NCBI GenBank assembly: GCA_041674405.1
Contig: JBAYVT010000005.1
Coordinates: forward strand, 60,001-92,000
Direction of reading: 5' to 3'
Origin: Patescibacteria group bacterium
Lineage (GTDB): Bacteria > Patescibacteriota > UBA1384 > XYA2-FULL-43-10
Length of the DNA: 32,000 bases
This document shows positions 663 through 28,996 of this stretch, in pieces. Both the position numbers and the translations under genes were made by a program. Below the pieces are notes generated by a model, which saw only the letters and a list, made by a program, of their open reading frames with translations, did not search any database and was not told the origin of the DNA. How positions within the stretch are numbered: the first letter of the stretch is position 1; the number at the start of each line of letters is the position of its first letter.

Positions 663-2684
663 TTAATTCACACTTTTTCTGGAGGCCTTAGTGAGTAATT
701 TTTTTTGCTTGAGATAAGTCAAGTTTACTCCCGCAAACAAAGATCCAAGAAGGCTCAAAACCCCACCGGCTGCAGCGCCGGTCTTGGGAAGAGGGGTGCT
801 TGCTGGCACAACTTTGGTCAAAATCACGGTTTGGGCAGTCGAAGAAATAGTATTTCCGCCCATAGACAAATATCCCGTATTTATCAGTTGTTCCCCAGCG
901 GCAATATTTGCAGAAGTGATCACCCTGAATCTTACATAGCCTGATTGTCCAGGAGCTAAGGTGTTGATGATAAATCCCTTGGTGACATCTTCAGAAATTA
1001 CATGTTCAGTGCCATCCAAGTTAATTATCGCAGGAACCGAAGTATCCAGGGCAACATTGGCTGGAAGGACATCGGAAATCTTCACCTGGTCAGCTGGCCC
1101 ATCTCCAGTGTTTGCAAAATCAATTTTGTATTCCAGCATGTCTCCAGGAAAGGCTGTATTTGATTTGGAAAATTCCAATTCATTGCTGGTGATATTTCTA
1201 ACAACTTTATTGATCGACAAGACAGGCTCTCTGTGTGGTCTTAGAATTATAATCGTGATTGTATTTCCATACTCGTTAAATAATTTATCATCGAAATGAA
1301 AACCATTTTGCGGGTTATCAGGCAATGGGTCCATCACCTTAACCGTAAATTTCCTAACCACATTTTGCCCCGGATCAATTCGAACTTCCGGCCAAATTAC
1401 TTCTTTGGAATTATTACCTTCCTCTGGATTATCTTTGACAATACCCCCATTACTTATACTGACAATGTTTGATTCCTCTAACACATCGCCGATACCATCC
1501 GAAACCACAAAGTTAGTAGCAATGGTTCCGGTGTTTTTGGTGTTCAAGGTATAAATAATAACATCGCCAGGCCTGGCAGGAGTAGATGTCGCATCAACTT
1601 TCAAAGTATCATTATAAGCAGACTTTGAACGATGAATATTAACAACTCCGGCTTTCAAGTCAACAATGGCTTCATCGTTAACGTTAATATTACCTGAAAT
1701 TGCATAGGCAACATTCGTTACAGATTTTGCAACCAATATGTAAGAAGGCGCTTTTGCACGAAATTTAATCACCGCGCCATTTTCCGCGCCAACCTTAAGG
1801 CTGCCAATACTTACTCCACTAGCAAAAAATCCGGCTGCGTCAAGATTGGTTGTGCTGTCCTCTTTGGTCATCGTAAGGGAATTATCCACATAGGTTAAAT
1901 CCGAAGGCAGGCCATCAGAAGCTGTAACTTCCTCAAGCGTTGATTCTCCAGGATTGGTAATATTTATTTTGTATTCCACTGACTCGTTTTGATCTACAGA
2001 TGTGCGCTCGACAAAACTAGTCTCATTCTTCGAAATGTTCCTTACCGCTTTCTCAATATGCAGATTACCCGGATTCACTTTTGCAGTTGTTTTAAACTGG
2101 AACATTACAAAACCGGCAAATTCCCAACAACCATTGATATCTCCGATATTCAAGCCAGACGAAGATAGAAGTTCTGATCCGTCTTGCCCAAAAGGAAGCG
2201 GAGTTGGATTGTTTATATCAGGATTGCTTGCCTGATTTGGAAACCACTTAACAGAACCAGGAACCAGTTTAAGCGTTGCATTTTGATCAAGATTAACAGT
2301 CAACGTATCAGAAACTGCAGCTACGCTATCAGCTGAAATTGTGGCGGACAAAACAGCTGTTTTGTTGGTGGTCTGTGCAGGCATGGATACCTTAATGGTT
2401 GTATTTTCAGCGGTAGTATTGACCTGGCCATTGTGATAATAAATTAAACCATCTATCACATCACCAGCCTGCCCGTCTACAGGATCACGCCAATCATCAT
2501 CCTGTGTATCACGAGTTGAATTAAAACCCCTAAAAAGCTCCTGATCACCCGGCAGGAAATTAAACCTCGGGCCATCGGCATTGATTCCGATTGCAGGTGA
2601 AATAACTTGAGAAATCAAAAGCGCTGCGGCGGCTACGCCTAAAACATACTTTAATTTCTTTTTAATTTGTGAAAACCATTTCAT
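663..2684 (-). CDS. LPXTG-anchored cell-surface protein with DUF11-type repeats and a shared N-terminal domain
   Basis: The 673-aa ORF has an N-terminal signal/TM segment (VLGVAAAALLISQVISPAIG). Its C-terminus is a sortase sorting signal: LPKTG, then a hydrophobic stretch, then a KQKK basic tail. Several DUF11-like repeats are present (e.g. AFPGDMLEYKIDFANTGDGPADQVKISDVLPANV). An AAGGA Shine-Dalgarno precedes the ATG. Confidence 0.8.
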   Translation of the reverse strand: MKWFSQIKKKLKYVLGVAAAALLISQVISPAIGINADGPRFNFLPGDQELFRGFNSTRDTQDDDWRDPVDGQAGDVIDGLIYYHNGQVNTTAENTTIKVSMPAQTTNKTAVLSATISADSVAAVSDTLTVNLDQNATLKLVPGSVKWFPNQASNPDINNPTPLPFGQDGSELLSSSGLNIGDINGCWEFAGFVMFQFKTTAKVNPGNLHIEKAVRNISKNETSFVERTSVDQNESVEYKINITNPGESTLEEVTASDGLPSDLTYVDNSLTMTKEDSTTNLDAAGFFASGVSIGSLKVGAENGAVIKFRAKAPSYILVAKSVTNVAYAISGNINVNDEAIVDLKAGVVNIHRSKSAYNDTLKVDATSTPARPGDVIIYTLNTKNTGTIATNFVVSDGIGDVLEESNIVSISNGGIVKDNPEEGNNSKEVIWPEVRIDPGQNVVRKFTVKVMDPLPDNPQNGFHFDDKLFNEYGNTITIIILRPHREPVLSINKVVRNITSNELEFSKSNTAFPGDMLEYKIDFANTGDGPADQVKISDVLPANVALDTSVPAIINLDGTEHVISEDVTKGFIINTLAPGQSGYVRFRVITSANIAAGEQLINTGYLSMGGNTISSTAQTVILTKVVPASTPLPKTGAAAGGVLSLLGSLFAGVNLTYLKQKKLLTKASRKSVN

Positions 2685-2738: not shown

Positions 2739-4262
2739 TTAAAAAGTTGGTGCAGGAATCGGCATAAGCCTTAGAATCGAACGCGCAATGTCGGAAATTT
2801 CCGCTACATTATCCCCCTTTACAAAAGCAGTATTGGTAAGGGTGTAATCTCCGATCGGCGGGCAACCAACAATAATCCCTGATAACTTGATGATCTTACT
2901 CTGGCCCGGATTCATATTACCCAAGCTAATTCCGCCGGCGAAAGTGATTCCATCTGGAACTGAAATACCATTAACCGTCGTGGAACCGGGGACATAATTT
3001 ACATAAAGCGGAAAGATGTCTCTAGCTTTAACGTTAGTTACAGCCGCATTTCCGGTCGCAGTAACAACGATTTTATAAGTGATCTTTTCTCCCAATTTCA
3101 CATTATTTTGTTCAACCCAGGTTGATCCGCTTAATACGGTTTTCTGAATTGTTAATCCAGATGTTGTCGAAACAATCACTCTTGCTGTGCTCTGGCCCTT
3201 AAACACTCCGGCCATAAAAAGCTTCGCTAAGTTGTCGAGGGTTAGCGTCCCTGCGGGAACTGTCGAATCAACTTTCACTTTGTATATAACCCTGATTGAC
3301 CCAGCGTCGAGAGGCGCGATATTCGGCAGATTAACCCCGGTAGAAAAAATCGTATCTGGCAGCTTTACTCCGGCTGGATGTGAAGCATCGAAATAAAAGG
3401 TTGTGCCTGTTTCATACTTCATATGAAGAGGTAATACATCTTTAACTGAAACATTGTTCGCAGTTACATTTCCACTATTTTCAACTTCCAACTTATATTC
3501 AACTACTTCTCCTGGATTCGCGGTAATCTCTTTGTGCCAGACATTTTCATTCAAGTGCTTAACATTCTTATCAATTGAAAGAGCTGTGTTGCCTTTGATT
3601 TTTCCGACAAATGTTACAAACCCCGCAAACTCCCAGCATCCATTTATATTTCCTATATTTACGCCATTTGCGCTGGTAATTCCATCAGGCAATGATTGTC
3701 CGGGTTGGCCAACATGAGTGGCTTGTTCGGGAAACAATTTAGTTGAACCGGGCACATATTCGATTATTCCACTTGACGGAAGATTAATTGTCTGTCCCGA
3801 TATGCCTTTGACTGCGCCATTGATTATAGTGTCATAGATTGGGGCAGTTTCATCTGACCACAGAGCGCTTGTCTCTTTTAGCGCATTTGACTCGCCTGTC
3901 GGCAGTGAAACGCGAATACGTACATTGTGGGCTGTCGAATTTAACATTCCATTGTGGTAATAGACCAAAAATGCAACTTCATCACCGATATTGGCATCGA
4001 TCGGGTCAGCCCAATCATTGCCCGAAGAAACAACAGATGCACGAAGCATCTCCTGGTCGCCAGGTAAGAAATTAAATCTTGGTGTTTGGCTTGTGTTATT
4101 TGATTCGGCAACTTTGGCATTTGAAGAAACCAAAGACAGCGAAATCAAACTTACAACAGCCAAAATAACGCCAATTGTTCTTTTGGTTTTTGAAATTCTT
4201 GTTTTTGATTTGTCCTTAACTCCGTGAAACAATTTCTCTCTCATTTTTTGAAAGAATGACAT
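2739..4262 (-). CDS. DUF11-repeat surface/secreted protein, paralog of 663-2684, no LPXTG signal
   Basis: The ORF track gives 2739-4292 with a TTG start. I prefer the internal ATG at 4262 (MSFFQKMREK...) because gtAAGGAGaaac lies directly upstream. There is a TM/signal segment (IGVILAVVSLISLSLVSSNA). The N-terminal domain is shared with the neighbouring gene (PRFNFLPGDQE, YYHNG, INGCWEFAGFV). DUF11-like repeats are present (ANPGEVVEYKLEVENSGNVTANNVSVKDVLP). Confidence 0.75.
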   Translation of the reverse strand: MSFFQKMREKLFHGVKDKSKTRISKTKRTIGVILAVVSLISLSLVSSNAKVAESNNTSQTPRFNFLPGDQEMLRASVVSSGNDWADPIDANIGDEVAFLVYYHNGMLNSTAHNVRIRVSLPTGESNALKETSALWSDETAPIYDTIINGAVKGISGQTINLPSSGIIEYVPGSTKLFPEQATHVGQPGQSLPDGITSANGVNIGNINGCWEFAGFVTFVGKIKGNTALSIDKNVKHLNENVWHKEITANPGEVVEYKLEVENSGNVTANNVSVKDVLPLHMKYETGTTFYFDASHPAGVKLPDTIFSTGVNLPNIAPLDAGSIRVIYKVKVDSTVPAGTLTLDNLAKLFMAGVFKGQSTARVIVSTTSGLTIQKTVLSGSTWVEQNNVKLGEKITYKIVVTATGNAAVTNVKARDIFPLYVNYVPGSTTVNGISVPDGITFAGGISLGNMNPGQSKIIKLSGIIVGCPPIGDYTLTNTAFVKGDNVAEISDIARSILRLMPIPAPTF

Positions 4263-4309
4263 GTTTCTCCTTACTAGGCTTAAGAATTTCAATTTATTAC
4301 TCGCACAAA

Positions 4310-4338
4310 ACCATACTAAATTCTTGAGCTAATGTCAA
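4310..4338 (-). promoter_or_regulatory. sigma70-like promoter for the DUF11 paralog pair
   Basis: The minus strand reads TTGACA (plus 4333-4338), a 17-nt spacer, then TATGGT (plus 4310-4315), about 45 nt upstream of the ATG at 4262. Confidence 0.45.
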
Positions 4339-4391
4339 TGTGTTTTTTCACTTTTTTCACCTTACCAAACATTCAAAATTTAAATGCTTGG

Positions 4392-4461
4392 TCGGTGGCC
4401 CTGGCGCATAGCGCCAGGGCACCGGTTTAGTTGTACCACACCGCCCGCTAGGGCGGTGTGG
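4392..4461 (-). terminator. two tandem GC-rich hairpins at the 3' end of the GC-rich two-gene unit
   Basis: Hairpin A has a perfect 11-bp stem (ccacaccgccc at 4436-4446 pairs with gggcggtgtgg at 4451-4461). Its 4-nt loop, gcta, contains the TAG stop of the 4448-5113 ORF. Hairpin B has a 10-bp perfect stem (gccctggcgc at 4398-4407 pairs with gcgccagggc at 4411-4420), extendable to 4392-4425 with one bulge. No clear U-tract follows either hairpin. Confidence 0.5.
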
Positions 4462-5113
4462 GCGTGGGCACGGGGATCGGATCCCCGCAGGTCCCCGGCA
4501 CCTTCTCCTCCTTGTTCGCCATCCCGGCGAATAGGGTGAGAAGCGTCTCGGTACAGCCTTCGATCACCCGAGCCATGCCCACCGGGCAATCCGGGAGAGG
4601 CTGGCTGGGGCTGATCCCCGCAGGAGCGACCCACTCCCGAGCCGGCGCGTACACGACGTACGGTACCGGGTAGGGCTTGGGGATCTCTACGACCACCGGG
4701 TAGGGTACCTTGACCTCAACCCGCTCAGGACACGCCAGTTTGCACGCTGGCGGTACCGGAGTGCATGGGATGAAGAAGCGGCCCCTAGCTAGGTTACCGC
4801 ACCGCACCATACGGGTAATCGTGTACCAGCGCCCCTGTACCCCGTCCTTGCAGCCCATCTCTGCAGGTACTGCGTAGACAGTTTCTGTGGGGATCAGGTA
4901 CCCGGGAACGAAGCGACCTTCGGACTCAAACCAGACCTCGGCGTCGACATACTGATTGAGCCGGTAGGCCTCCTGGCCGTTGATCGCCGGGCAGTGCCGC
5001 CCGATCGGGTACGTGTTCGTGATCTTCTCCGAGAGGTTGATGCCCGAGGCAAACGCTGCCCCGACCATGACCATCAAGAGAAGGGTGAGGATCAGCGTCA
5101 GCTTACCCCTCAT
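4448..5113 (-). CDS. hypothetical secreted Cys- and Pro/Val/Tyr-rich protein (GC-rich insert, gene 2)
   Basis: The ORF track gives 4448-5122 with a GTG start. I prefer the ATG at 5113 (MRGKLTLILTLLLMVMVGAAFASG...) because GGAGG lies 8 nt upstream. It has a clear signal peptide, about 10 Cys and a PYPVVVEIPKPYPVPYVVY tract. It overlaps the upstream ORF's stop by 11 nt. I recognise no family. Confidence 0.6.
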   Translation of the reverse strand: MRGKLTLILTLLLMVMVGAAFASGINLSEKITNTYPIGRHCPAINGQEAYRLNQYVDAEVWFESEGRFVPGYLIPTETVYAVPAEMGCKDGVQGRWYTITRMVRCGNLARGRFFIPCTPVPPACKLACPERVEVKVPYPVVVEIPKPYPVPYVVYAPAREWVAPAGISPSQPLPDCPVGMARVIEGCTETLLTLFAGMANKEEKVPGTCGDPIPVPTPTPP

Positions 5114-6395
5114 GGATCTCACCTCCTGTGAGAATCAGCACTTTGACTTTCCCGTCGAGCGGGTACGTCCAGGTGCGAGTGTCCGGAGATGTGGACAGCG
5201 CGAAATGCGTATAGCCACGCGCTGCCTCACACGTGAACCAGGACTCTCCCTTGTCTCTCGCCGCGACCGTAAACGGTGCGTTGGGAGCGATCCAGCGGCC
5301 ATCTTGCTGAACCCACAGGAAGAGTGTCGCCGATGTCTCGCCGGACTGCTCGTCCAGCGCCACGACGAAGGTGGAGTCGGTATGCGCCTCGCGGAGGCGC
5401 TCGGCCTGAGACTTTACCGGCGGTGCCGAGGTAGTGACAGGCGTGGTCGTAGTGGAAGGCTGAACGGAAGCAGGGGGCGGATCCACAGGAGAAGCTTGCT
5501 GCTGCTCCTGCATCTTCCGTAGCACCGCTTCCGCCGCTTCCGCCCGCTCACGCTCTGCCTGAGCCTGGGCCTTAGCGGCTGCGGCCTCGGCTTGCGCCGC
5601 GGCAACTGCCGGATCAGGCCCGTTCTGCCGAGGCATGAACGGAGGTGCGAACCCCTGTGCAGCGCGCGCTGTAGCAGTCGAGATCTCCTGGTAGTCAGCT
5701 GGCTTGCAGGCCAGCATTATACTAGAGGAGAACATACTGTAGACACGCGACCGGTAGACCGGCCACAGGGCCTTGGGAAGGTCCTTTTCGCACTGCACGC
5801 CGCACTGCCCGTTGAGGAAAGAGACGATGTCGGCGTTTACGTTCTGTACGTTGAACGCTATGGCCGACTGGTCGGTCCTCATGACATGGTCAGCGTGCCT
5901 GATGAAGAAGAACCTGTAGTCCCTTCGGGACTGATCGTGGCGAACCTCTGACACGAGGAAGTAGCGGCCAGGACCGAGCCGATTGAGATCAACCCAGAGC
6001 CGGTTATCCTCCGCAGAAACACACAGCCCGTCCAGTCCCTCAACTTCGACCCGGGTTCCCTTCAGGTGGCAGTCCTCAATCCCGAATACCCTCAGGTCCA
6101 CCGACATGCAGCAGGTCTCTTCGGTGATCTTGTATGGCCTAGGATACCCCTCCGAACAGTCCTCGGAGACCGGAGCCGTGAAGGTCTGGCCCAGAGCCCA
6201 GCCGTTCACCGTGCCACCTTCCTTGTTGCTGAAAGTGACAATTGCGGTGGGCGAACTGATGACCGTGGTTCCCTTGACCGTGATCAAAGGGATACCAAAC
6301 CCACCGAAGATCGTGGTCTCGTCGGCCGAAGCCGGCGCGAGACAGACCGCCAGAATGGCAGCCAGAACCAGCAGTACGACGAATCTAGTGCGCAT
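5103..6395 (-). CDS. hypothetical secreted multi-domain protein (GC-rich insert, gene 1)
   Basis: The 430-aa ORF has an AAGGAGG Shine-Dalgarno 8 nt before the ATG at 6395 and a signal peptide ending in an AxA site (LAVCLAPASA/DE). A Cys-rich N-terminal region is followed by an Ala/Glu/Gln-rich helix (AAAQAEAAAAKAQAQAERERAEAAEAVLRKMQEQQQ), a Pro/Thr/Ser linker and a C-terminal domain of about 90 aa. I recognise no family. Confidence 0.65.
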   Translation of the reverse strand: MRTRFVVLLVLAAILAVCLAPASADETTIFGGFGIPLITVKGTTVISSPTAIVTFSNKEGGTVNGWALGQTFTAPVSEDCSEGYPRPYKITEETCCMSVDLRVFGIEDCHLKGTRVEVEGLDGLCVSAEDNRLWVDLNRLGPGRYFLVSEVRHDQSRRDYRFFFIRHADHVMRTDQSAIAFNVQNVNADIVSFLNGQCGVQCEKDLPKALWPVYRSRVYSMFSSSIMLACKPADYQEISTATARAAQGFAPPFMPRQNGPDPAVAAAQAEAAAAKAQAQAERERAEAAEAVLRKMQEQQQASPVDPPPASVQPSTTTTPVTTSAPPVKSQAERLREAHTDSTFVVALDEQSGETSATLFLWVQQDGRWIAPNAPFTVAARDKGESWFTCEAARGYTHFALSTSPDTRTWTYPLDGKVKVLILTGGEIHEG

Positions 6396-6472
6396 GGTTA
6401 TGCGCCTCCTTGTGAGTCCCCTTAGCGGGGTTAGTGTCCCCGCAGGGGGATTTTGTATTCATCTATATCAAA

Positions 6473-6502
6473 GTGCCACCTCGCTCGCTGCGCAGGTGGC
6501 AC
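6473..6502 (-). terminator. GC-rich hairpin about 80 nt upstream of GC-insert gene 1 (terminator-like insulator or leader structure)
   Basis: A 9-bp stem (gtgccacct at 6473-6481 pairs with aggtggcac at 6494-6502) closes a 12-nt loop. On the minus strand it is followed by UUUGAUAU. Confidence 0.3.
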
Positions 6503-6871
6503 AGTGAACGAGGTCAATCTCCGCCAAAACCGTAGTCTTGGCAAGAGGCGAATGATTTAAAAGTCATCACGCCTTCTGCCAAAAAAGTTCTTCAATTATT
6601 TTTGACCTTTCCAACCTCGGCTCGACCATCGGACGAGACGGGTGATTTTCGAATTATCTTCACAGATCCAGCCAGGAATAAGGCGAGAAACGATCAAGGT
6701 ATTAGCCAGACCAGGTTCGCATTTTTTAAGGAACCATCAATGTCAGCTATAGAGCTTGCCGCCCATAAGGCCCCTTATTCCCAGCCAGACCCGTAAAAAC
6801 AATCTCTCAACTTCGGTCGAGATAAATCTCCGCTTCAGTCGATGTAAACAATTTCTCAATTCCCTTGGAAT

Positions 6872-6901
6872 AAAAAACGGAATGGAAATCTCTTTCCATC
6901 C
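6872..6901 (-). terminator. rho-independent terminator of the dus/PGI operon
   Basis: The stem atggaaa (6882-6888) pairs with tttccat (6893-6899) around the loop tctc, with two extra G-C pairs across a bulge. On the minus strand a U6 tract follows (plus-strand aaaaaa at 6872-6877). It lies about 70 nt past the PGI stop. Confidence 0.6.
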
Positions 6902-6970
6902 CTCACTTTCACGAGAATTACTTTAGCACAATTATCGAATCTTGTCAATATCTGACTCTACTATTTCGCA

Positions 6971-7756
6971 TTATTCGAACAAATTAGCTACAGACAGATC
7001 GGATAAATATTTCTCTGGATTTCTCAAAAAATCAACCCGAGACAGATCGGTAACATAATCATATGCCGGATTATCAAGATAAGGCCCAATAATTTTGGGG
7101 GCTGATTTCAGATTTTTAACCGGCAGGAGTTCTCCGTATCTTGGATTTTTGACAATTTTCTTTTCACCAAATTTATCTAAAATATAATATGCAGCTCCCT
7201 GTTTATTTTCAAATTCAGAATAATCAGAATCGAAACCATTACAAACCCAGTTTGCCATTACAAGAGTGCGATTTCCGGCGTTGATTGTGGCGTGTCCATA
7301 TCCTGGGGGTATAACGATTGAGTTTCCCTCTTCAACTTGGCAGATAATCACATCGGTCACAATGCCGTTCTCTAAATTTTGCACAAGACATGTTGCGACG
7401 CCAGACGCTACATAATATAATTCCGGATATTGAAAATTTGTACCCTGCTTGTTTGGGTGATAATGCCCTATGGTTTTTATATATTCATCTCCAATTTTGG
7501 CTGGCGGCACAACGGTAAGATCAAATCTCAAATTGGAATTTGAAATTTTCTCGGCATCAGCCATTTTTTTTACGCCTCGGTACATTAAATATGAAGAATT
7601 GTCAGAGAGTGGAACGTCCTGATTGGCAGCAACTGGGCGAAGGTCGGAAAATTTTCTCTCACTGACTTTTTCCACGTCGACAGCGGCACCAAAAGACAGC
7701 CTGCCGTTTTCTTCAAGCAGAGCAGAAAAGCCGATTTTGTCCGTAAGATTAGTCAT
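6971..7756 (-). CDS. cupin-type (archaeal-type) glucose-6-phosphate isomerase
   Basis: The blocks are collinear with the Pyrococcus-type cupin PGI as I remember it: TVVPPAKIGDEYIKTIGHYH, ELYYVASGVATCLVQ, IVIPPGYGHATINAGNRTLVMANW, IVKNPRY. Confidence 0.7.
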   Translation of the reverse strand: MTNLTDKIGFSALLEENGRLSFGAAVDVEKVSERKFSDLRPVAANQDVPLSDNSSYLMYRGVKKMADAEKISNSNLRFDLTVVPPAKIGDEYIKTIGHYHPNKQGTNFQYPELYYVASGVATCLVQNLENGIVTDVIICQVEEGNSIVIPPGYGHATINAGNRTLVMANWVCNGFDSDYSEFENKQGAAYYILDKFGEKKIVKNPRYGELLPVKNLKSAPKIIGPYLDNPAYDYVTDLSRVDFLRNPEKYLSDLSVANLFE

Positions 7757-10236: not shown

Positions 10237-10458
10237 CTAAAATTCATCGTCAGCTGCGCCTTGCATCCTTTCAAGCGGTATTTCTTCTTCTGCAAGATCC
10301 ATCGGCTCAAATTCTTCACCAGGATAATCATTCTCTTTTCGGGTATCATCATCAGTGTCGCCGATATTGACCATACTACCGCCACAGGGGCATTTCTCTT
10401 CACCCGGATCATCTAGTGTAGAGTGTCCGCATTCTTCGCAGACCCATTCATTTGGCAT
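10237..10458 (-). CDS. small acidic zinc-ribbon protein (hypothetical)
   Basis: The 73-aa ORF has CEEC...CPC spacing typical of a 4-Cys ribbon, followed by a strongly acidic tail. A GAGGGAAG Shine-Dalgarno lies directly before the ATG. Confidence 0.5.
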   Translation of the reverse strand: MPNEWVCEECGHSTLDDPGEEKCPCGGSMVNIGDTDDDTRKENDYPGEEFEPMDLAEEEIPLERMQGAADDEF

Positions 10459-10569
10459 CTTCCCTCTTTGTTTTAATTTTATACTTTTCAGATTTTATAT
10501 GTCAGAATTTCCAATGTCAATGAACAACAATTATCCTCTCTGGCAGCAGAATTTATGAGTTATCAACAG

Positions 10570-13455: not shown

Positions 13456-14532
13456 TTAGATTTTCTTCCTGTATCTTCCACCCACATTCTCAATTAAACC
13501 TTTCATTTCCATTATTGTCAAAAGAGAATTTAGCTCGATGACATTTATTTTGCTTGACACAAGAATTAAGTCAGCTGGCATATCTTCGCTACCGATAATT
13601 TCCAGAATTGACAACTCTTTGTCATTTGCAGGAGAAATCTCTTTGATTTTATCTACAAATTTTATTTTTTCAATATTTAGTTCACCCAAAATATCGTCGA
13701 TAGACTGGACTAACTTAGCCCCTTTTTGAATCAAAAGATTGCACCCTCTTGATGTTTCCGATGTAATCGGCCCCGGAACTGCAAAAATCTCCCGATCATA
13801 TTCAAGACCAGCTTCAGCTGTGATCAGGGCACCCGAAATTTCCGCCGCCTCCACCACCAGAATTCCTTTTGACAGCCCCGCAATTATGCGATTGCGTGCT
13901 GGAAAATTTTGTTTAAATGCTTCGGTTCCCGGAGGATACTCAGAGACAATTGCCCCGCCCTTTTTAATAATTTCATAAGCCAGCCCTTGGTTTGCGACTG
14001 GATAAATTCTATCAAGACCACATCCCAATACACCAATTGTAATTCCATCAGCATCGAGCGCGCCTTTATGCGCGACGGCATCGATTCCTAAGGCAAGACC
14101 AGAAATAATGCCAAGCCCATTTTCCGCACACTCTTTACTAAGCCTGTATGCAACGTTTTGGCCGTATGAGGAAAATTTACGGCTGCCCACTATTGAAATT
14201 GCCGGAACATTAAAAGCATTGATATCACCTTTTATATACAAAATTATTGGTGCGTCATAAATCTCTCTTAAAATATCGGGGTACCTCTTGTCAAAAAAAG
14301 TAAGATAACCGATTCCAAGTTTTCTCAATTTTTTTACTTCCTCGTCGGGATCAAATTGATTTTTCGCCTCCATAAACATATCCTGAAACTTTTCACCATA
14401 TATTTTTTTTAACTCCCTGCCATCAGATTTCCATAGTTTTTCGGCATCATCGCAAAAAGCAGCAAGCATTTTTTTAATAGTCTGCGAACCAATTTTAGGA
14501 TGTGAATTTAGAGCTAATAAATATTTAGACAT
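13456..14532 (-). CDS. dprA: DNA processing protein DprA (Smf)
   Basis: The Rossmann-like core carries IVGSRKFSSYGQ, GLALGIDAVAHKGAL and FPARNRIIAGLS. Confidence 0.9.
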   Translation of the reverse strand: MSKYLLALNSHPKIGSQTIKKMLAAFCDDAEKLWKSDGRELKKIYGEKFQDMFMEAKNQFDPDEEVKKLRKLGIGYLTFFDKRYPDILREIYDAPIILYIKGDINAFNVPAISIVGSRKFSSYGQNVAYRLSKECAENGLGIISGLALGIDAVAHKGALDADGITIGVLGCGLDRIYPVANQGLAYEIIKKGGAIVSEYPPGTEAFKQNFPARNRIIAGLSKGILVVEAAEISGALITAEAGLEYDREIFAVPGPITSETSRGCNLLIQKGAKLVQSIDDILGELNIEKIKFVDKIKEISPANDKELSILEIIGSEDMPADLILVSSKINVIELNSLLTIMEMKGLIENVGGRYRKKI

Positions 14533-21583: not shown

Positions 21584-22312
21584 CTATGGGTTATAGTCTC
21601 GGCTCTCAACACTCGTTTTGATTTCAGCCTGAGCACGATAATTGGGCAGTAAATTGTCATAATCTTTTGATTGTGCAAAGATCCCTATCCTTACAAATGG
21701 CTGCTGAATTCCAGACGAAGCCATAAACCCCCAAAATCTGGCATTGAGGCTTACTTCATTATTTACTATTTCCTCTCTAAAATTTTGGTTTGTGTTCAAA
21801 TTTATCGTGCCTTTCCATTCATTACTAGAAACTTCATCAGAAATCGTATATTCGCGACGATAAAGGTCATGATCGCCACTTGCAGTCACCAGCGTTCTGT
21901 AGAGTATTATTTTACTATCAGTTTTTTTAAGTACTCCAAGAGAATAATAGTTATTTGAATTGTAGTTGATTGTCTCATCTGGGTTTGTTCCGCCTGGCCT
22001 AACAATATTTCCAGAAGTCGTGGAAAAACTGCCAGACTGATCGGTTTGGACCAAAAACACATCCCTAACAAGCACATCTGCGGTAGTACCCGCCGTGATT
22101 TTTACGCTGCCGTTTGAAAGCCTCACGTCATCTGAAATTTTCATCATAGTACCCCTAGCCTCGGACAGAGAATTTCTGGTTTCCCTAATTTTTGCATTAT
22201 ATGAGGAAGTCATAGAAAAAACAGCTGTTGCCATGATCATAATAATGGCAAAAATTGTCGATGCAATCAGTATTTCTATGAGTGTAAAACCTTTTTTGTG
22301 TGAATTTGTCAT
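21584..22312 (-). CDS. prepilin-type N-terminal cleavage/methylation domain protein (minor pilin-like)
   Basis: It has a class III signal, KKG/FTLIEILIASTIFAIIM, with Glu at +5. Confidence 0.7.
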   Translation of the reverse strand: MTNSHKKGFTLIEILIASTIFAIIMIMATAVFSMTSSYNAKIRETRNSLSEARGTMMKISDDVRLSNGSVKITAGTTADVLVRDVFLVQTDQSGSFSTTSGNIVRPGGTNPDETINYNSNNYYSLGVLKKTDSKIILYRTLVTASGDHDLYRREYTISDEVSSNEWKGTINLNTNQNFREEIVNNEVSLNARFWGFMASSGIQQPFVRIGIFAQSKDYDNLLPNYRAQAEIKTSVESRDYNP

Positions 22313-22315
22313 ATG

Positions 22316-22912
22316 CTAAAAATTAGGATGTGAATTAGTAATAAGCTCGTCAATCAAAACAGACTTGCTATTATTATCGCCCCAGGTTATCGTGCAAGTT
22401 GCAATTATGGCATTGTTATTATCGACGGTGATATTATTTCCTAAACCATCTGTAACATTGTCGATATCCTCTGCAGCCTTGAAAATAATGGTTCGCGTAA
22501 ATTTGTTTCCATCTAGCGGTACTTCTCCAGTGATTCCGGATCCATCTTTTTCAACTAATTTTGAACGATTTGGATAATTGGGAGCCGGAGTAGAACTCGC
22601 GGCCTTAAAGTCAAAAACATATTCGGTATTTAGTTTTGGCTTATTGTCAGCAATATTTTCCAATACGAAGGAATTCCATTTTGTAGAGGGGTCATTGTCA
22701 ATGTAATTGGTATCGCGAATCTGCCTTAACATTTCAATCCCCTGTTGTGCTAAAAATGTGGCTTGAGCTCTTTGCTTAGTCAAACTCAAGTTGTTTAGAA
22801 CCGTCTTGCCAAGCACAACAAGAGCACCAAGCATGGTGATAATAATAACTCCAGCCAGTAATACTTCTAGCAAACCAAAGCCTTTAGTTTTTGTGACGAG
22901 CATTTTTTTCAT
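22316..22912 (-). CDS. prepilin-type protein (minor pilin-like)
   Basis: TKG/FGLLEVLLAGVIIITMLGALVVL has Glu at +5 after the predicted cleavage Gly. Confidence 0.65.
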   Translation of the reverse strand: MKKMLVTKTKGFGLLEVLLAGVIIITMLGALVVLGKTVLNNLSLTKQRAQATFLAQQGIEMLRQIRDTNYIDNDPSTKWNSFVLENIADNKPKLNTEYVFDFKAASSTPAPNYPNRSKLVEKDGSGITGEVPLDGNKFTRTIIFKAAEDIDNVTDGLGNNITVDNNNAIIATCTITWGDNNSKSVLIDELITNSHPNF

Positions 22913-23436
22913 TGCATAATGGTATTATTTTTTGCCGAATAAGGCTCTGCGGTGACTACGACCCGTTGTTCGCGCGTTGTTCTGTTTGAACCTATAGTAA
23001 TGCTTGTACTTGGTAAATTATTATTGATTTTAAAATTTCCGGGGTAATAAGAGTATGTAAAACCCAAATCCGATCCGGTACCGAAAACTACATTCATTCC
23101 AGTAAAGTCTACAATGTCTTTGGAGTCAGTTATAGAAGTAGGCGCAAGATCACAATCCTCTTTTGTGCTATTGATCTGCCCGTACTGAATATTCATACTT
23201 GTTCCATCGGGGTTTTGAGTAAATATAATCCTGGCACAATTTTGGTTTTGTTGGGGATTTTGTGAATATGCATAGGCGCGATCCAGCAGCGCTTTCACCT
23301 CGTCTGCCTTTAATACGACTTCCTGCCTGGCCCCAAAATTTTGATATGCCGGAATAGCTGCCGCAGCCATTAACAAAATAATCGCAATCACTATCAATAT
23401 TTCAATTAATGTAAAGGCTCTTTTTTTAAAACTCAT
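22909..23436 (-). CDS. prepilin-type protein (minor pilin-like)
   Basis: It has the signal KKRA/FTLIEILIVIAIILLMAAAAIPAY. It overlaps the downstream gene by 4 nt. Confidence 0.7.
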   Translation of the reverse strand: MSFKKRAFTLIEILIVIAIILLMAAAAIPAYQNFGARQEVVLKADEVKALLDRAYAYSQNPQQNQNCARIIFTQNPDGTSMNIQYGQINSTKEDCDLAPTSITDSKDIVDFTGMNVVFGTGSDLGFTYSYYPGNFKINNNLPSTSITIGSNRTTREQRVVVTAEPYSAKNNTIMQ

Positions 23437-23460
23437 TTTTAACCAAAATTAACAATATTG

Positions 23461-24108
23461 TCATGGCGCACTAACAAGATTTGAACCGACGAAAAATATT
23501 TCTGGATATTCCGGTGATGTATAGGCGCTGGAAAAATCTTTGAGCGATTCAGATGCGGACAGTGCCATCGCTTGCCCTTGTGTATCGCGGAGTGTTTGGC
23601 TGAAAAATTTCCTACCATTCCCATCATTTGCGATTTCAAGGTGAGCGGCTAATACATAAGAATATTTCGATGTAAGATAGGTGTAAAAATATTCATTCGG
23701 ATCCGCATGCCAAGTTACATGGTTTTGGGTATTATCTTTTTGTTTAGGATCTTCCGCCATAGGAAGGGGAATATATCCGTTGAGAAGCCCATTGAGACCG
23801 CTAGACCAGCGATTAGTATTGGGTCCACCATCCGGGTTTGACAATGAATTACAGCTTCTTACCCGATACCAATTTTGGCCGGCTGGAACATTTACTGCAT
23901 CATATGGATATACCCTTCTATCGGCATGAAATGCTTCAATTGCCGCAGCAATTGCCTGAATATCAGCCTTTCTCTTGTTGTCCCGCGCTTTTGCCTGGGC
24001 ATTGGTATATGAAATGATAATAATTGTTGCAAGAATCCCAATAATTGCAACTACGACAAGCAGCTCAATTAATGTAAATGCCCTTGATTTTGCTAAATGC
24101 CGTCTCAT
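23461..24108 (-). CDS. type IV pilin / pseudopilin (PulG-like N-terminus)
   Basis: The N-terminus is [43 protein letters not shown]. Confidence 0.8.
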   Translation of the reverse strand: MRRHLAKSRAFTLIELLVVVAIIGILATIIIISYTNAQAKARDNKRKADIQAIAAAIEAFHADRRVYPYDAVNVPAGQNWYRVRSCNSLSNPDGGPNTNRWSSGLNGLLNGYIPLPMAEDPKQKDNTQNHVTWHADPNEYFYTYLTSKYSYVLAAHLEIANDGNGRKFFSQTLRDTQGQAMALSASESLKDFSSAYTSPEYPEIFFVGSNLVSAP

Positions 24109-24671
24109 CTATTTGTGTGTTTATCTATAAAATAGGCCTTGTTATTGTCATGATCTTGTTGGTTGTAAGAAAAATTTGGCGGATCAGTGGTTGCGGGACC
24201 ATATCCCCCGCAAATCCCGCCCACAGGGTAAAAAGCGGTGTTTCCGGAAGAAGTCTCAAGACGGGTAGTCAAACAATACTGATTTGGCCACAATATAACC
24301 CCGTAAGAATAAATCTCACTTTGATTCCACGATTCAAGTCCATTGTATGAGCTGAGTGCAACCTTTGGATCTTGCGGTAGAGAACTAAGATAGCCCGAAA
24401 GCCAATTGCCCAACTTGGGCCAATAGCGAGGGTCTGCAGAATCGTTGACATATGAGGCGAAGGTATCATGATCTGTGTTGGAATACCTATGCTTATCGGC
24501 ATATCTCATTTCCAACGCACTGGCGATGGACTCGAGATCGACCTTTCTTTTATTATCTCTGGCTTTGGCTTGTGCATTATTATAAGAAATGATAATTATT
24601 GTTGCCAAAATTCCGATTATTGCAATAACAACCAATAACTCAATTAATGTGAAACCTCTTTTTCTGTCCAT
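24105..24671 (-). CDS. type IV pilin / pseudopilin, paralog of 23461-24108
   Basis: The N-terminus [43 protein letters not shown] is nearly identical to the neighbouring gene over about 40 aa. An AGGAGG Shine-Dalgarno precedes the start. Confidence 0.8.
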   Translation of the reverse strand: MDRKRGFTLIELLVVIAIIGILATIIIISYNNAQAKARDNKRKVDLESIASALEMRYADKHRYSNTDHDTFASYVNDSADPRYWPKLGNWLSGYLSSLPQDPKVALSSYNGLESWNQSEIYSYGVILWPNQYCLTTRLETSSGNTAFYPVGGICGGYGPATTDPPNFSYNQQDHDNNKAYFIDKHTNR

Positions 24672-24679
24672 ATCCCCTC

Positions 24680-25438
24680 CTAAATCCTAAAATATCCAAA
24701 ATACCAATCAATAAAATATTGTCCCCAAATAAGGGCAATCAGCGCCGAGGCAATCAAAAACGGGGCAAATGGCAAACTATCTTTCATTTGTTTCTTTTTA
24801 GTAGCTAAATATATTACACCCACTATTGAACCGAGAACAAAGGCAGCGAAAATCAGAAACATCGCTCGCGGATAGCCAACCATGGCACCAACCAGAAAAC
24901 CAAGTTTGATATCGCCTGCCCCCATCCATTTTTCCCTAGATACAAGCACGAGTATAAGCGGGATCGCTCCACAGATTAATGAACCAATGAGCATATTAGA
25001 TAATCCAAAATTTCCAAAATACCATGATCCCAAAAGGGCGATTACAAGCCCTGTCCAGACAAATTCTTCCGGAATCAGTTCGGTTTTAAAATCATATACA
25101 AAAACGACGGTGAGTATAGAAAACAAAATCGCATAAAAAGCAAATTGCCACCCCAGCCCAAAAATATAATATAAAACTAAAAATAATAGGGCTATCCCCA
25201 CCTCAACGATTGGATATTGGATTGATATTGTTTTTTTGCAATATCTGCATTTTCCGCGCAAAATAACATAGCTTAAAAATGGGATAAGATCATACCATCT
25301 CAGCACCTCTTTGCAATGTGGACAATGTGACCTAGTATAAAGAACGCTTTTCAAATCATCAATACGGAAAATTATAACATTCAAAAAACTGCCAATCGCC
25401 AGTCCCACAAGAATCGCTATGATTGGATAAATATACAT
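24680..25438 (-). CDS. pilD: prepilin peptidase (A24 family)
   Basis: A polytopic membrane protein with the zinc-binding N-terminal motif CPHCKEVLRWYDLIPFLSYVILRGKCRYCKK and the GAGDIKL active-site Asp motif. Confidence 0.9.
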   Translation of the reverse strand: MYIYPIIAILVGLAIGSFLNVIIFRIDDLKSVLYTRSHCPHCKEVLRWYDLIPFLSYVILRGKCRYCKKTISIQYPIVEVGIALLFLVLYYIFGLGWQFAFYAILFSILTVVFVYDFKTELIPEEFVWTGLVIALLGSWYFGNFGLSNMLIGSLICGAIPLILVLVSREKWMGAGDIKLGFLVGAMVGYPRAMFLIFAAFVLGSIVGVIYLATKKKQMKDSLPFAPFLIASALIALIWGQYFIDWYFGYFRI

Positions 25439-25477
25439 TAAAAATACTCCTTATTCAATTTTTAAATTAATACCCAC

Positions 25478-25499
25478 AGGGTCCCCCTAAGGGGACCTT
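25478..25499 (-). promoter_or_regulatory. GC-rich hairpin immediately downstream of a pilin gene (attenuator or mRNA stabiliser candidate)
   Basis: The stem ggtcccc (25480-25486) pairs with ggggacc (25491-25497) around the loop ctaa, extendable by 2 weaker pairs. It begins 9 nt past the stop at 25508 and lies about 40 nt upstream of the pilD start. Confidence 0.4.
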
Positions 25500-25507
25500 T
25501 GTAGAAA

Positions 25508-26020
25508 CTAATCTGTTAGCGCATAATTGTAGTTTGCGGGCAACCCAACTGTTGAGGTTGGTGCTGTTGCATTCACTATTTGATATGTGCCCTCAGTGGC
25601 TCCCGGAGTAGCCTCACCTTTATCCGAATCTGCTGTATTTTCAAGCTCTGCGGCTAGAGCAAAATCAGCCGGGGTGCCAGCAGTGCCATTGTGGGATAAA
25701 TACATATACGGATTTGTTCCCTGTGGATCTGCAGGCATTGTCTTAAGATAAAGCCCTCCCGCAATAAGAGCGGCTGTAACCGTGTTTCCAGAAGCTGCCA
25801 AAGATTCAAAAGTATCATCAGCGGTAGCAGCCGGGAATTGATCCTTGTCCGTGTTATATTGGGCGAGAGCGGACTTGATCGTACGAAGATCATTTTTTCT
25901 TCTCGCATCGCGAGCCTTGGCTCTGGCACCATTAAGCGCTACAAGCACCATAGCTGCCAAAATGCCAATGATGGCGATAACTACAAGAAGCTCAATTAAT
26001 GTAAAACCTCTTTTTTTCAT
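25508..26020 (-). CDS. type IV pilin (major pilin candidate)
   Basis: The N-terminus is [45 protein letters not shown]. The product is 170 aa, with an AGGAG Shine-Dalgarno. Confidence 0.85.
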
Positions 26021-26050
26021 AAAAACTCCTAATGATTTATTAGTATTGTA

Positions 26051-26473
26051 CTAATCGCAGTTTGATGTTGAGCCAACAGTACAAGTAATAGATGGATACC
26101 CCGTAGCAGGAGTTACAGCCATTGCTGTTAACGTCGTTCCATTTAAAGCATTGGTTACCGTGTAGGAGTAACCGTCACTGGCAGCTGTTAATGTTGGCCA
26201 AACAACATTTGCCGCATCTGATGATACGCCTGCGGGGATATTGCTGCAGATATTACCAGAGGGGGTTGTATTTGCGTGAGCTGCACCAAGATTTCCACCA
26301 TCTACCACACAAATAGAAATCGTCTTTAGGGCCTGGTTAAGATTTGAAACTGCTGCAGCTTTTTTGGCGGCCGGCCTTGCATTAGATAATGCAATAATAA
26401 TGATCGTCGCCAAAATGCCAATGATTGCGATAACCACCAAAAGCTCGATAAGTGTAAAACCTCTTTTTTTCAT
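26051..26473 (-). CDS. type IV pilin (major pilin candidate)
   Basis: The N-terminus is [38 protein letters not shown]. The product is 140 aa with a strong AGGAGG Shine-Dalgarno. A C-terminal Cys pair (ITC...NCD) is consistent with a pilin D-region disulfide. Confidence 0.85.
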
Positions 26474-26543
26474 ATTCCTCCTTTAACGCTTATTACAGTC
26501 TTGATCGACCCCTCCTAGGACAAGACAGTTTTTTATATTAAAA

Positions 26544-27746
26544 CTACTGAATTTGCGCAATATTATAAATCGGCACCAAGATTGCAAAAATGAGAAATGC
26601 CACGCCAAAGCCAATAACCAAAAGCACGGCTGGTTCAACCAGAGTGGAAATGCCCTTAATTTTTTCGGATGTTTCAGATTCATAATATGTTGCAACCTTA
26701 TCCAGCACCTTATCCAGTTTGCCAGTCTGCTCACCAACAGCTACCATCTGCCCCATAAGTCCGGGAAAAGAAACGTCCTTGGAGAGTGGAACGGAAAGCG
26801 GAACACCTTTTTCTACTTCTAAAGCCATCTGCGCGATACTTTCTTCGTAAATTTGATTATTCATTGTGGCACCAGCAATTTTTAATGAATCAAGTATTGG
26901 CACGCCAGACGAAATTAGCATTTCGAGCGTACGCGAAAATCTGCTCATGTAAATCCCTTCGGATAATCCTTTAATACCGGGAATTTTCAATTGCCATATG
27001 TTTAGTGTTCTGGCTCCCACGTCAGAAACGAGCCAAAAACGAATTCCCAAAACCAACAAGATCAAGATTATCAAAGCTAGCCACCACATATTTGTGAAAA
27101 ATCCTGAAAGGGCTATCAAAACCCGCGTGGCCACCGGCAATGTAACACCATTCGCCTTAAAAATTACATCTAATTTTGGAATAACCGCAACAAGCATATA
27201 TACACCAATACCAAGCAGGGCAACAAGTATAAATATCGGATAATAAAGTGCGCTTTTGATCTTGCCCACAAAATTGTTATCATTTTCATATTTATCAGCC
27301 AGTTGCGATAATACCACCTCGAGATTACCCGTTGTTTCTCCTGATCGTGCAACAGACACGAAGATTCGGTCAAAAACGTTCGGATGTTTTGCCAGTGCTG
27401 TTGAAAAAGCGTAACCTTCTTCGATATCCTTGAAGATTTCATAATAAGCAGCCTTTAATTGTTCATTCCGCGCTTGCTTCGCGACGATACTCAATGCTTT
27501 TGACAATGTAAGCCCAGCACCAATCATTGTGGCGAGTTGGCGGGCAAAAACAGCTTTGTCTTTTAGGGTTGCTTTGGAAACAAACAGATTATTAAAATTT
27601 AGTTGTTTCCTTTCTGCGATAATTTCACTAGGAAACAACTTGTTTGAAAGGAGCATTTTTTCAGCCGCAAATTCATTCGCCGCTTCTACCGAGCCGGTTA
27701 CATTTGCCCCTTTGTCGTTTTTTGCTTTAAATAGAAATTTCGCCAT
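26544..27746 (-). CDS. pilC: type IV pilus platform protein PilC (GspF family)
   Basis: The 400-aa ORF has the duplicated GspF architecture: two cytoplasmic domains alternating with TM segments, plus FARQLATMIGAGLTL and FSRTLEMLISSGVPI repeats. Confidence 0.9.
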   Translation of the reverse strand: MAKFLFKAKNDKGANVTGSVEAANEFAAEKMLLSNKLFPSEIIAERKQLNFNNLFVSKATLKDKAVFARQLATMIGAGLTLSKALSIVAKQARNEQLKAAYYEIFKDIEEGYAFSTALAKHPNVFDRIFVSVARSGETTGNLEVVLSQLADKYENDNNFVGKIKSALYYPIFILVALLGIGVYMLVAVIPKLDVIFKANGVTLPVATRVLIALSGFFTNMWWLALIILILLVLGIRFWLVSDVGARTLNIWQLKIPGIKGLSEGIYMSRFSRTLEMLISSGVPILDSLKIAGATMNNQIYEESIAQMALEVEKGVPLSVPLSKDVSFPGLMGQMVAVGEQTGKLDKVLDKVATYYESETSEKIKGISTLVEPAVLLVIGFGVAFLIFAILVPIYNIAQIQ

Positions 27747-27828
27747 ATATCAGTTTGTTGTTATTGGTCCGTAGTTTTTAGTTAATTTCAACTGGCTTTT
27801 AGTTTTTATATTTAAGTTATTAACTAGC

Positions 27829-28899: not shown

Positions 28900-28936
28900 A
28901 TACCCTCCAAAATAGTACTAAAGAGCACCTATAACC

Positions 28937-28965
28937 ATTATAAATATACGCTTAATTGTAGTCAA
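28937..28965 (-). promoter_or_regulatory. near-consensus sigma70 promoter upstream of pilT
   Basis: The minus strand reads TTGACT (plus 28960-28965), exactly 17 nt of spacer, then TATAAT (plus 28937-28942). A GGAGGG Shine-Dalgarno lies before the ATG at 28899. Confidence 0.5.
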
Positions 28966-28996
28966 CTGCTTTTAAGATTTTGAGGTTAACGCTTTA

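Follow-up and report, generated by a model that had tools for sequence, protein, structure and literature searches.

A GC-rich and hypervariable gene pair for predicted exported proteins, preceded by a conserved structured RNA, in a probable surface locus of Candidatus Berkelbacteria

What do two adjacent genes of very high guanine-plus-cytosine (GC) content do in a bacterial genome of 40% GC, and why have they kept that composition? The question is raised by a 32,000-nt stretch of DNA from a Patescibacteria group bacterium (contig JBAYVT010000005.1, positions 60,001–92,000; hereafter the window, with positions counted from its first nucleotide), in which two minus-strand genes, here called g1 and g2, fill a sharply bounded GC-rich island. 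The analysis led us to a reading that we hold at about an even chance, namely that the pair is a recombination-diversified adhesion or specificity module in a surface locus conserved in Candidatus Berkelbacteria. An original prediction, made from the letters of the window, had described the two genes as a coupled pair for secreted proteins; the sharp GC island in a 40% GC genome, the hypervariable mosaic evolution, and the conserved structured RNA reported here were absent from it.

As read from the sequence, g1 is followed by g2 on the minus strand and the two are translationally coupled, with the following features and signals.

4390–6520, no strand assigned: GC-rich island, 57–72% GC in 100-nt windows against about 40% in the rest of the 32 kb
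5103–6395, minus strand: g1, open reading frame (ORF) with an ATG start, predicted exported protein of 430 aa
6405–6411, minus strand: Shine-Dalgarno sequence of g1, AAGGAGG, 9 nt 5' of the ATG
6437–6450 and 6418–6430, minus strand: two small GC hairpins 5' of the g1 Shine-Dalgarno sequence
4448–5113, minus strand: g2, ORF, predicted exported protein of 221 aa
5122–5126, minus strand: Shine-Dalgarno sequence of g2, GGAGG, within the 3' end of g1
4394–4461, minus strand: pair of GC-rich hairpins, one around the g2 stop codon and one 3' of it, perfect inverted repeats, RNAfold −53.4 kcal/mol

The g2 ATG (5113–5111) and the g1 TAA (5105–5103) lie in an 11-nt overlap of the two genes, and in homologous loci g1 and g2 abut or overlap by 4–14 nt. 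A GGAGG-type Shine-Dalgarno sequence precedes the ATG by 7–10 nt in nearly all of the 17 genes found at the g1 position. The N-terminus of g1 reads MRTRFVVLLVLAAILAVCLAPASA up to the predicted cleavage site and DE after it; the signal peptide (residues 1–24) comprises a positively charged n-region (MRTR), a hydrophobic core of 15 residues (FVVLLVLAAILAVCL), and APASA, ending in A-S-A before D. That of g2 reads MRGKLTLILTLLLMVMVGAAFA followed by SG and is built from MRGK, LTLILTLLLMVMVG, and AAFA before S (residues 1–22). Both agree with the pattern for Sec export and type I signal peptidase (positive n-region, h-region of 10–15 residues, small-x-small), and the layout is common to all 17 g1-position genes and to the g2 homologs; the signal peptides were called by inspection and by this conservation. 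A perfect 11-bp hairpin (arms 4436–4446 and 4451–4461) has the g2 TAG (4448–4450) in its 4-nt loop, and a second perfect hairpin of 10 bp lies 3' of it at 4398–4420. A strong hairpin within about 60 nt of the g2 stop codon, followed by a drop in GC, was found in 19 of 19 loci examined. The hairpin pair at 4394–4461 forms the 3' edge of the GC island and is likely the operon terminator. We regard g1 and g2 as one bicistronic, coupled operon for two predicted Sec-exported proteins. The original prediction had named the two minus-strand ORFs, both Shine-Dalgarno sites, the 11-nt overlap, the signal peptides, and the stop-codon hairpin, and all were found where it had placed them.

Are these genes real? 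GC-rich DNA gives long ORFs in several frames, and four antisense ORFs of 119–180 aa occur here. The pair could then be an artefact, either of a chimeric assembly or of chance ORFs in GC-rich non-coding DNA with the true gene on the opposite strand. Three other assemblies, from different samples, contain this DNA with both its GC junctions at 99.98–100% identity, and junctions identical in independent assemblies indicate that the island is not a chimera. The GC contents of the first, second, and third codon positions (GC1, GC2, and GC3) follow a coding pattern in both genes (0.62/0.50/0.72 in g1 and 0.62/0.49/0.79 in g2). The ratio of nonsynonymous to synonymous divergence (dN/dS) between related loci is 0.08–0.19 for g1 and 0.12–0.21 for g2, values that point to purifying selection on the pair in the called frames. 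The Shine-Dalgarno sites and signal peptides are conserved, and only g1 and g2 have homologs in the related loci, unlike the antisense ORFs (4980–5522, 5983–6507, and others). The artefact explanation is already refuted by these data, and its probability is practically nil. The original prediction had taken the genes to be real genes for exported proteins rather than high-GC artefacts, and had named conservation of the opposite-strand ORFs as the outcome that would speak against it; the GC periodicity, the dN/dS of 0.08–0.21, and the distribution of homologs, found for g1 and g2 and for none of the antisense ORFs, bear it out.

What kind of proteins do they encode? Neither protein matched Pfam-A at E ≤ 0.1, and no match above the family cut-offs was obtained in NCBIfam or PHROGs. 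Hits to PilP (E = 0.08) and to phrog_200 'lipoprotein' (E = 0.009) were rejected as sub-threshold composition matches on the Ala/Glu/Gln helix and the Pro/Thr linker of g1. An indexed profile search gave only two proteins, and the g1 family was revealed by an exhaustive phmmer search of 1.84 billion representatives, 13 of which are members (26–34% identical, mostly full-length). The earlier statement that the proteins have no recognizable family therefore stands for Pfam, NCBIfam, and PHROGs but not for g1 as a whole, which belongs to this uncurated family. An exact copy of g2 is already annotated as hypothetical protein WC080_03950 in a Patescibacteria metagenome-assembled genome.

The AlphaFold2 model of g1 (predicted local distance difference test score, pLDDT, 78) has an immunoglobulin (Ig)-like beta-sandwich at about residues 39–185, helices at 187–246, a helix of about 40 residues at 262–300, a disordered Pro/Thr linker at 301–329, and a C-terminal beta domain at 341–429. 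A Foldseek search of the PDB with this model returned only generic Ig-like matches (cadherin, Sap S-layer domains, and PKD), and no fold match at E ≤ 1e-3. All g1 proteins end in a strand resembling GG..E-[VA]-[RKH]. The architecture of g2 consists of a variable head, an extended Val/Glu/Pro-rich tract, a conserved motif (R-[EQ]-[WFY]-[VI]-x-P-x-G, in a stricter form R-Q-[FY]-[IV]-x-P-x-G), and a Pro/Gly tail; a single-sequence AlphaFold2 model was unusable (pLDDT 38). In the window, g2 has a Cys-bearing type 1 N-domain with an RCGNxARG motif, the tract VPYPVVVEIPKPYPVPYVVY, and a short Pro-rich tail. It contains no Gly-X-Y repeats, while collagen-like Gly-X-Y runs occur in some g2 alleles of related loci (designated by L numbers), with GKNGRNGHDGKPGPKGDRGETGRPGRDG and GPPGPPGPPGPP as examples.

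L047, 2306–3220: g2 allele with collagen-like runs
L032, 1640–2368: g2 allele with collagen-like runs
L024, 8837–9664: g2 allele with collagen-like runs

No lipobox ([LVI][ASTVI][GAS]C) was found: g1 has L-A-V-C, with Val at −1 and a Cys that is absent from the homologs, and the g2 signal peptide has no Cys. Neither protein has an LPXTG sortase signal, g1 ending in ...LILTGGEIHEG and g2 in ...PVPTPTPP. There are 10 Cys in g1 (8 of them within mature residues 80–230) and 9 in g2, corresponding to 2.3% and 4.1% of residues, where the remaining 22 proteins encoded in the window have 0.7%. The original description as Cys-rich and disulfide-stabilized thus fits this allele only; it does not carry over to the family, whose members have 2–7 Cys at positions that are not conserved.

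How widely is the pair distributed, and has it come from elsewhere? Since the g1 alignment had no stretch conserved enough to serve as bait, related loci were recovered with an alignment of the DUF11 genes that lie downstream. The bait recovered 13 species-representative GTDB genomes, mostly Candidatus Berkelbacteria and the others titled Saccharibacteria or Patescibacteria, in which, on every contig that reaches upstream of DUF11-A, a GC-rich stretch of about 2–2.5 kb lies 5' of this gene, less pronounced in L015 and L017. A further 34 metagenome loci were reached through the structured RNA described below. Over about 40 distinct loci the order is Dus/GPI, the RNA of about 157 nt, g1, g2, DUF11-A, DUF11-B (with LPKTG), and prfA. 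All six g1 relatives that were looked up (P0003, P0005, P0007, P0008, P0011, and P0013) sit in the same Dus-GPI-g1-g2-DUF11-A-DUF11-B-prfA neighborhood as far as their contigs reach. In the metagenomes, every confirmed RNA with downstream sequence is followed by a GC-elevated two-gene island and then a DUF11 gene; the co-occurring pair, for which the original prediction had proposed a metagenome search, thus recurs.

The sharp GC boundaries and a codon usage reversed relative to the genome would fit a recent horizontal acquisition from a high-GC donor (host bacterium, phage, or plasmid) whose composition the island still reflects; Patescibacteria take up foreign DNA, and DprA and a type IV pilus operon are encoded in the window. 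Synteny already largely refutes this explanation. The two-gene unit occupies the same site in about 40 loci, and every g1 relative with looked-up context sits in this locus. Housekeeping proteins are only 37–62% identical between these genomes, so that synonymous sites are saturated; across a divergence this deep an ancient import should have ameliorated, yet the GC excess persists. The locus is present in every relative examined rather than patchily distributed as a genomic island would be. No integrase or transposase gene was found in the 32-kb window, no transfer RNA (tRNA) gene near the island, and no direct repeats flanking it beyond chance. Searches of phage, plasmid, and IMG/VR collections returned no relatives, and a phage, plasmid, or viral origin was rejected for this lack of matches. 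A diversity-generating retroelement and an integrase-type island were rejected likewise, as their hallmarks were not found: no reverse transcriptase domain in window ORFs of at least 150 aa and no long direct repeat of island sequence. A recent acquisition is accordingly very unlikely.

What, then, maintains the composition? The island is about 2.1 kb long with 61–63% GC, and its edges coincide with the leader and the terminator. GC3 is 0.71 in g1 and 0.79 in g2 versus 0.32–0.40 in the other 22 genes of the window, and GC at four-fold sites is 0.67 and 0.75, respectively, versus 0.39. Shifts are also seen in GC1, GC2, and the amino-acid composition. Expression-linked codon bias was rejected as the cause, since GC3 is only 0.33–0.41 in the ribosomal-protein genes of this genome. 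The excess is persistent, at 8–21 GC points over the flank (median 16) in all 21 loci that could be measured, and, with the edges just named, it is confined to the transcription unit. It spans the whole unit and persists through the divergence of the clade, and we read the GC-richness as either the footprint of chronic recombination, through GC-biased gene conversion, or a property needed for recombination or expression, and not as a mark of recent foreign origin. The island has three copies of a minus-strand 10-mer, CCTGCGGGGA, at 4482–4491 and 4615–4624 in g2 and at 6437–6446 in a hairpin of the g1 leader, possibly by chance in DNA so rich in GC.

Recombination is shown by the alleles themselves. 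Between loci, g1 is 22–39% identical and g2 often unalignable, with DUF11-A and DUF11-B at 41–51%. In several loci the g1 position holds a non-homologous first gene of the same layout (signal peptide, head, coiled coil, and small C-domain). When the domains were clustered separately, N- and C-domain types were found to combine freely: g1 N-type 1 pairs with seven C-types, C-types 1, 2, and 4 each pair with two or three N-types, and g2 head types reassort too. Two pairs of close genomes are decisive. L032 and L047 have flanks 93–97% identical and a synonymous divergence (dS) of 0.24 in DUF11, with saturated synonymous sites in g1 and non-homologous g2 heads; between L022 and L051, dS is 0.49 in DUF11-A, 2.36 in g1, and 1.50 in g2. 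From these pairs we conclude that alleles were replaced by recombination with breakpoints in conserved flanks, and the RNA upstream and the g2 tail with DUF11-A downstream are indeed conserved around the replaced alleles. By sequence comparison, both whole alleles and single domains are exchanged by homologous recombination between lineages.

The conserved upstream flank raises the question of how the operon is controlled. Although g1 is divergent, the GPI-g1 spacer of 575 nt contains blocks that have stayed conserved; the following elements occur in the window and in related loci.

6648–6804, minus strand: rod-like structured RNA of about 157 nt with 5 helices and 43 bp (RNAalifold and covariance model)
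L005, 586–745; L012, 7574–7729; L014, 7345–7500; and others: further copies of the RNA
6537–6580, minus strand: leader hairpin GGCAGAAGGCG...CGCCTCTTGCCAAG, seen by eye in the window, L004, L005, L006, L008, and L017
6461–6517, minus strand: attenuator-like element with two alternative pairings
L007, from 515; L008, from 7864; L019, from 1491; L035, from 1390: attenuator-like element in relatives

RNAalifold on nine loci gave −48.8 kcal/mol, with compensatory changes in 26 of the 43 pairs. When 15 sequences were aligned, 94.3% of cells were paired and both sides had changed in 29 of the 43 pairs; this covariation was reached in 0 of 500 shuffles, and slid controls gave 38–57%. The window copy folded alone has −64 kcal/mol (z = −6.7). 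A covariance model, R1, finds exactly one copy, on the g1 strand and 5' of g1, in all 17 loci that include the region, and in Berkelbacteria the RNA always lies between Dus/GPI and the GC-rich pair, at 74–499 nt from the ATG. A pattern scan of metagenomes gave 37 matches, of which 34 were confirmed by the covariance model and three (L044, L049, and L053) were rejected by it as chance. The 3' strand of the RNA carries an invariant pyrimidine tract, UUCUCnCCUU, that resembles an anti-Shine-Dalgarno sequence.

Searching Rfam with the window gave nothing at the gathering score, and searching it with 6380–6980 at E ≤ 10, as with four other loci, gave nothing relevant; the RNA is previously undescribed and has no Rfam family. 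A T-box was considered for the segment GGUGG[CU]AC and rejected, no RF00230 match being obtained at E ≤ 10: the T-box sequence AGGGUGGNACCGCG belongs 5' in the antiterminator, whereas the segment here is the 3' partner of both alternative helices. 6S RNA and signal recognition particle (SRP) RNA were rejected for want of Rfam support. The long inverted repeat is unlikely to be a miniature inverted-repeat transposable element or an integron attC site, as it is syntenic, occurs as a single copy, and has its pairing preserved by compensatory changes, though a role as a DNA hairpin is, strictly, still conceivable. The RNA either opens the g1-g2 leader or is a small RNA in its own right, and most likely it would regulate the operon in cis.

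Between the RNA and the attenuator-like element, the leader hairpin at 6537–6580 shows, by eye, apparent compensatory changes (AGGCG/CGCCT, AGACG/CGTCT, and AGACA/TGTCT). In the attenuator-like element, CGAGGTGGCAC (6473–6483) can pair with GACCTCG (6509–6515) or with GTGCCACCT (6494–6502), the latter pairing forming a hairpin followed by the U-rich run TTTGATAT. Both alternatives recur with compensatory changes in the window, L007/L019, L008, and L035, all of the sub-clade of the window; with so few sequences the attenuator reading is only suggestive. The element may be a terminator/antiterminator switch in the g1 leader, or possibly a promoter.

These structures bear on a different account of the GC excess, in which selection acts on the transcript: a structured, long-lived, and slowly translated mRNA with codons rare in the genome, its expression set by the RNA and the attenuator. 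The GC-rich tract coincides with the transcription unit from leader to terminator hairpin, the codon usage is the inverse of that of the genome, and the genes are preceded by a conserved structured leader and an element that possibly has two states, all of which this account would accommodate. It has no known precedent, however, and leaves the excess synonymous divergence and the allele swapping unexplained; the shifts in amino-acid composition and in GC1 and GC2 are what a DNA-level bias predicts. We consider it improbable, although it is compatible with a recombination-diversified module and does not exclude it.

What do the neighbors say about function? The two genes downstream of g2 are as follows.

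2739–4292, minus strand: DUF11-A (Pfam DUF11, DUF7507, and DUF7619; NCBIfam isopeptide-forming fimbrial domain)
4310–4338, minus strand: promoter-like site of DUF11-A, TTGACA-17-TATGGT
663–2684, minus strand: DUF11-B (DUF11/CLIPPER repeats by Pfam and NCBIfam), C-terminus ...PLPKTGAAAGGVLSLLGSLFAGVNLTYLKQKK

DUF11-A is an adhesin-like protein with DUF11/CLIPPER repeats, a conserved partner downstream of g2 that is syntenic in all loci. The C-terminus of DUF11-B is a canonical sortase signal (LPKTG, a hydrophobic transmembrane stretch, and KQKK); no sortase gene was found in the 32-kb window. The original prediction had placed the coupled pair beside two adhesin-like genes and taken them together for a cell-surface or host-interaction module. 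The DUF11 partnership proved to be conserved throughout the clade, which makes a cell-surface module a reasonable reading; the host interaction is our inference.

Elsewhere in the window, 21584–31516 (minus strand) holds a complete type IV pilus or competence-type operon, with five genes carrying prepilin N-methylation motifs, a prepilin peptidase, a PilC-like protein, and PilT-like and PilB-like ATPases; DprA (13456–14532) and RecR, relevant to DNA uptake and recombination, lie near it. Some related loci have peculiarities of their own. After g2 in L009, a third GC-rich ORF (10351–10503, 60% GC) is cut by the contig end, and this island may hold three genes. In L012 (5567–6464) and L022 (5059–6345), 0.9–1.3 kb without a convincing ORF on the gene-coding strand separate CysRS from Dus, which are adjacent in the window; local GC reaches 0.55–0.61 there, and no Rfam match was found in the L022 stretch. 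Between g2 and DUF11-A of L022 (9799–9883, plus strand) there is a sub-threshold Rfam match to 'Termite-leu' (31 bits, E = 0.005; gathering score 51), probably a hairpin artefact. A segment of about 320 nt is 94% identical between L014 (4358–4677) and L027 (3127–3446) in surroundings of 72–79% identity, which may reflect a recent exchange or an RNA gene that is not annotated.

Taken together, g1, g2, and the downstream DUF11/CLIPPER proteins, of which DUF11-B would be sortase-anchored through LPKTG, may constitute a conserved cell-surface locus in which the g1/g2 operon comes with a structured leader and terminator hairpins of its own. Within this locus g1 and g2 would be the variable part that determines specificity, in adhesion to or recognition of a partner cell, a host cell, or a substrate. 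The predicted g1 protein would present an Ig-like head on a coiled-coil helix that could drive oligomerization, joined by a flexible Pro/Thr linker to a small beta domain at the C-terminus, and g2 would present a variable head on an extended Pro-rich stalk that is collagen-like in other alleles.

The same architecture could be read in two other ways. In one, g1 and g2 are structural parts of the envelope, such as an S-layer-like or wall scaffold, and vary under the pressure of phages or predators on exposed epitopes. Every examined genome of the clade has the pair, the Pro-rich or collagen-like tails resemble wall-spanning or stalk regions, and the best structural neighbors of g1 include S-layer Sap domains, if only with weak, generic beta-sandwich scores. 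No fold match is significant at E ≤ 1e-3, however, the Pfam search found no S-layer homology (SLH) or other S-layer anchoring domain, and the strict linkage to DUF11 adhesin-like genes suggests one functional surface appendage; we judge an envelope role unlikely, though it deserves to be kept in mind. In the other, the two proteins would be a polymorphic effector or toxin, secreted against host cells or competitors, and its partner protein. Both proteins are exported and their domains are shuffled as in polymorphic toxin loci, but no toxin, enzyme, or immunity domain was detected in Pfam, NCBIfam, or PHROGs, neither protein looks like a cytoplasmic immunity protein since both carry signal peptides, and variable N-terminal heads on stalk-like regions are an adhesin-like layout. 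A toxin function thus has very little probability.

Several observations weigh against the recombination-diversified adhesion module as a whole. We infer adhesion or host recognition only from architecture, synteny, and variability, and neither protein has an LPXTG signal, a lipobox, or a known wall-binding domain. A tblastn search with all alleles against the window and all loci (10–30 kb per genome) found no silent g1 or g2 copies outside the island. The island does not differ between the three assemblies of this organism, so that there is no sign of rapid switching within a population; the variation of g1 and g2 lies between lineages. GC skew is about 0 across the island, unlike in the vls cassettes discussed below. 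The GC excess is much weaker in the sub-clades of L015, L017, and L032 despite allele swapping, so that recombination and GC are not tightly proportional, and we know of no GC-biased gene conversion of this size (GC3 +0.35 to +0.45) documented in bacteria. Finally, in another sub-clade the RNA is preceded by a −10-like box and followed by a U-tract, and it may be an independent small RNA.

A bolder version of the recombination hypothesis would make the RNA (or a DNA hairpin) and the GC-rich unit a diversification device that targets homologous replacement of the g1-g2 cassette by naturally transformed DNA, with a logic analogous to that of the upstream G-quadruplex/small RNA element of Neisseria pilE or of Borrelia vls. 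We regard this as a long shot; if true, it would be a programmable host-range locus of an episymbiotic bacterium with a reduced genome.

In the Candidate Phyla Radiation (Patescibacteria), how cells recognize and attach to their partners is largely unknown, and most surface proteins are unannotated. The locus offers a concrete, clade-wide candidate for a specificity determinant, combining two unannotated exported families that are swapped between near-identical genomes, conserved DUF11/sortase-anchored partners, and a new RNA that probably controls them. It is also a rare bacterial example of an island whose deviant composition has been kept through deep divergence instead of ameliorating, so that existing metagenomes allow a direct test of GC-biased gene conversion or of selection on transcript composition. 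Binning tools and detectors of horizontal gene transfer would call the island foreign, wrongly.

How does the locus compare with known systems? Structured RNAs of known kinds include riboswitch or attenuator 5' leaders and rod-shaped small RNAs such as 6S RNA. The covarying structure of about 157 nt upstream, with a possible terminator/antiterminator pair downstream of it, resembles these; it differs in having no Rfam match even at E ≤ 10 (6S, SRP, and T-box included) and in its distance of 74–499 nt from the ATG. DUF11-A and DUF11-B share DUF11/CLIPPER domains with sortase-anchored Gram-positive adhesins and pilins that contain isopeptide domains, and DUF11-B has the LPKTG signal, whereas g1 and g2, their invariable partners, have neither a DUF11/CLIPPER domain nor a sorting signal. 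Streptococcal M protein is a single LPXTG-anchored chain, almost all coiled coil, with a hypervariable N-terminus and a Pro-rich wall-proximal region. The modeled g1 is similar in its hypervariable, exposed N-terminus, coiled coil, and Pro-rich region but would differ in its beta-sandwich head and in having only one helix of about 40 residues. In streptococcal Scl1 and Scl2 and in Bacillus BclA, the N-terminal head is globular and variable and sits on a stalk that is Pro/Gly-rich or collagen-like, at a Gram-positive-type surface. The head-on-stalk layout of g2 and the true Gly-X-Y runs of some of its alleles recall these proteins; the window g2 lacks Gly-X-Y repeats and LPXTG, and no sequence similarity was detected (Pfam and NCBIfam).

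The vls cassettes of Borrelia burgdorferi have 49% GC in a genome of 28.6% GC, a property that is group-wide and linked to gene conversion (PMC11499132). The vls locus has an expression site and adjacent silent cassettes, with a strong GC skew (0.52) and G-runs. In contrast, g1 and g2 have no silent copies in the searched range and a GC skew of about 0, vary between genomes and not within one population, and encode unrelated proteins. Even so, both are surface-protein loci with a G+C content far above that of an AT-rich genome, a content that in vls, and perhaps here, is tied to recombination-based variation, and by this analogy we consider vls the nearest precedent for the g1/g2 locus.

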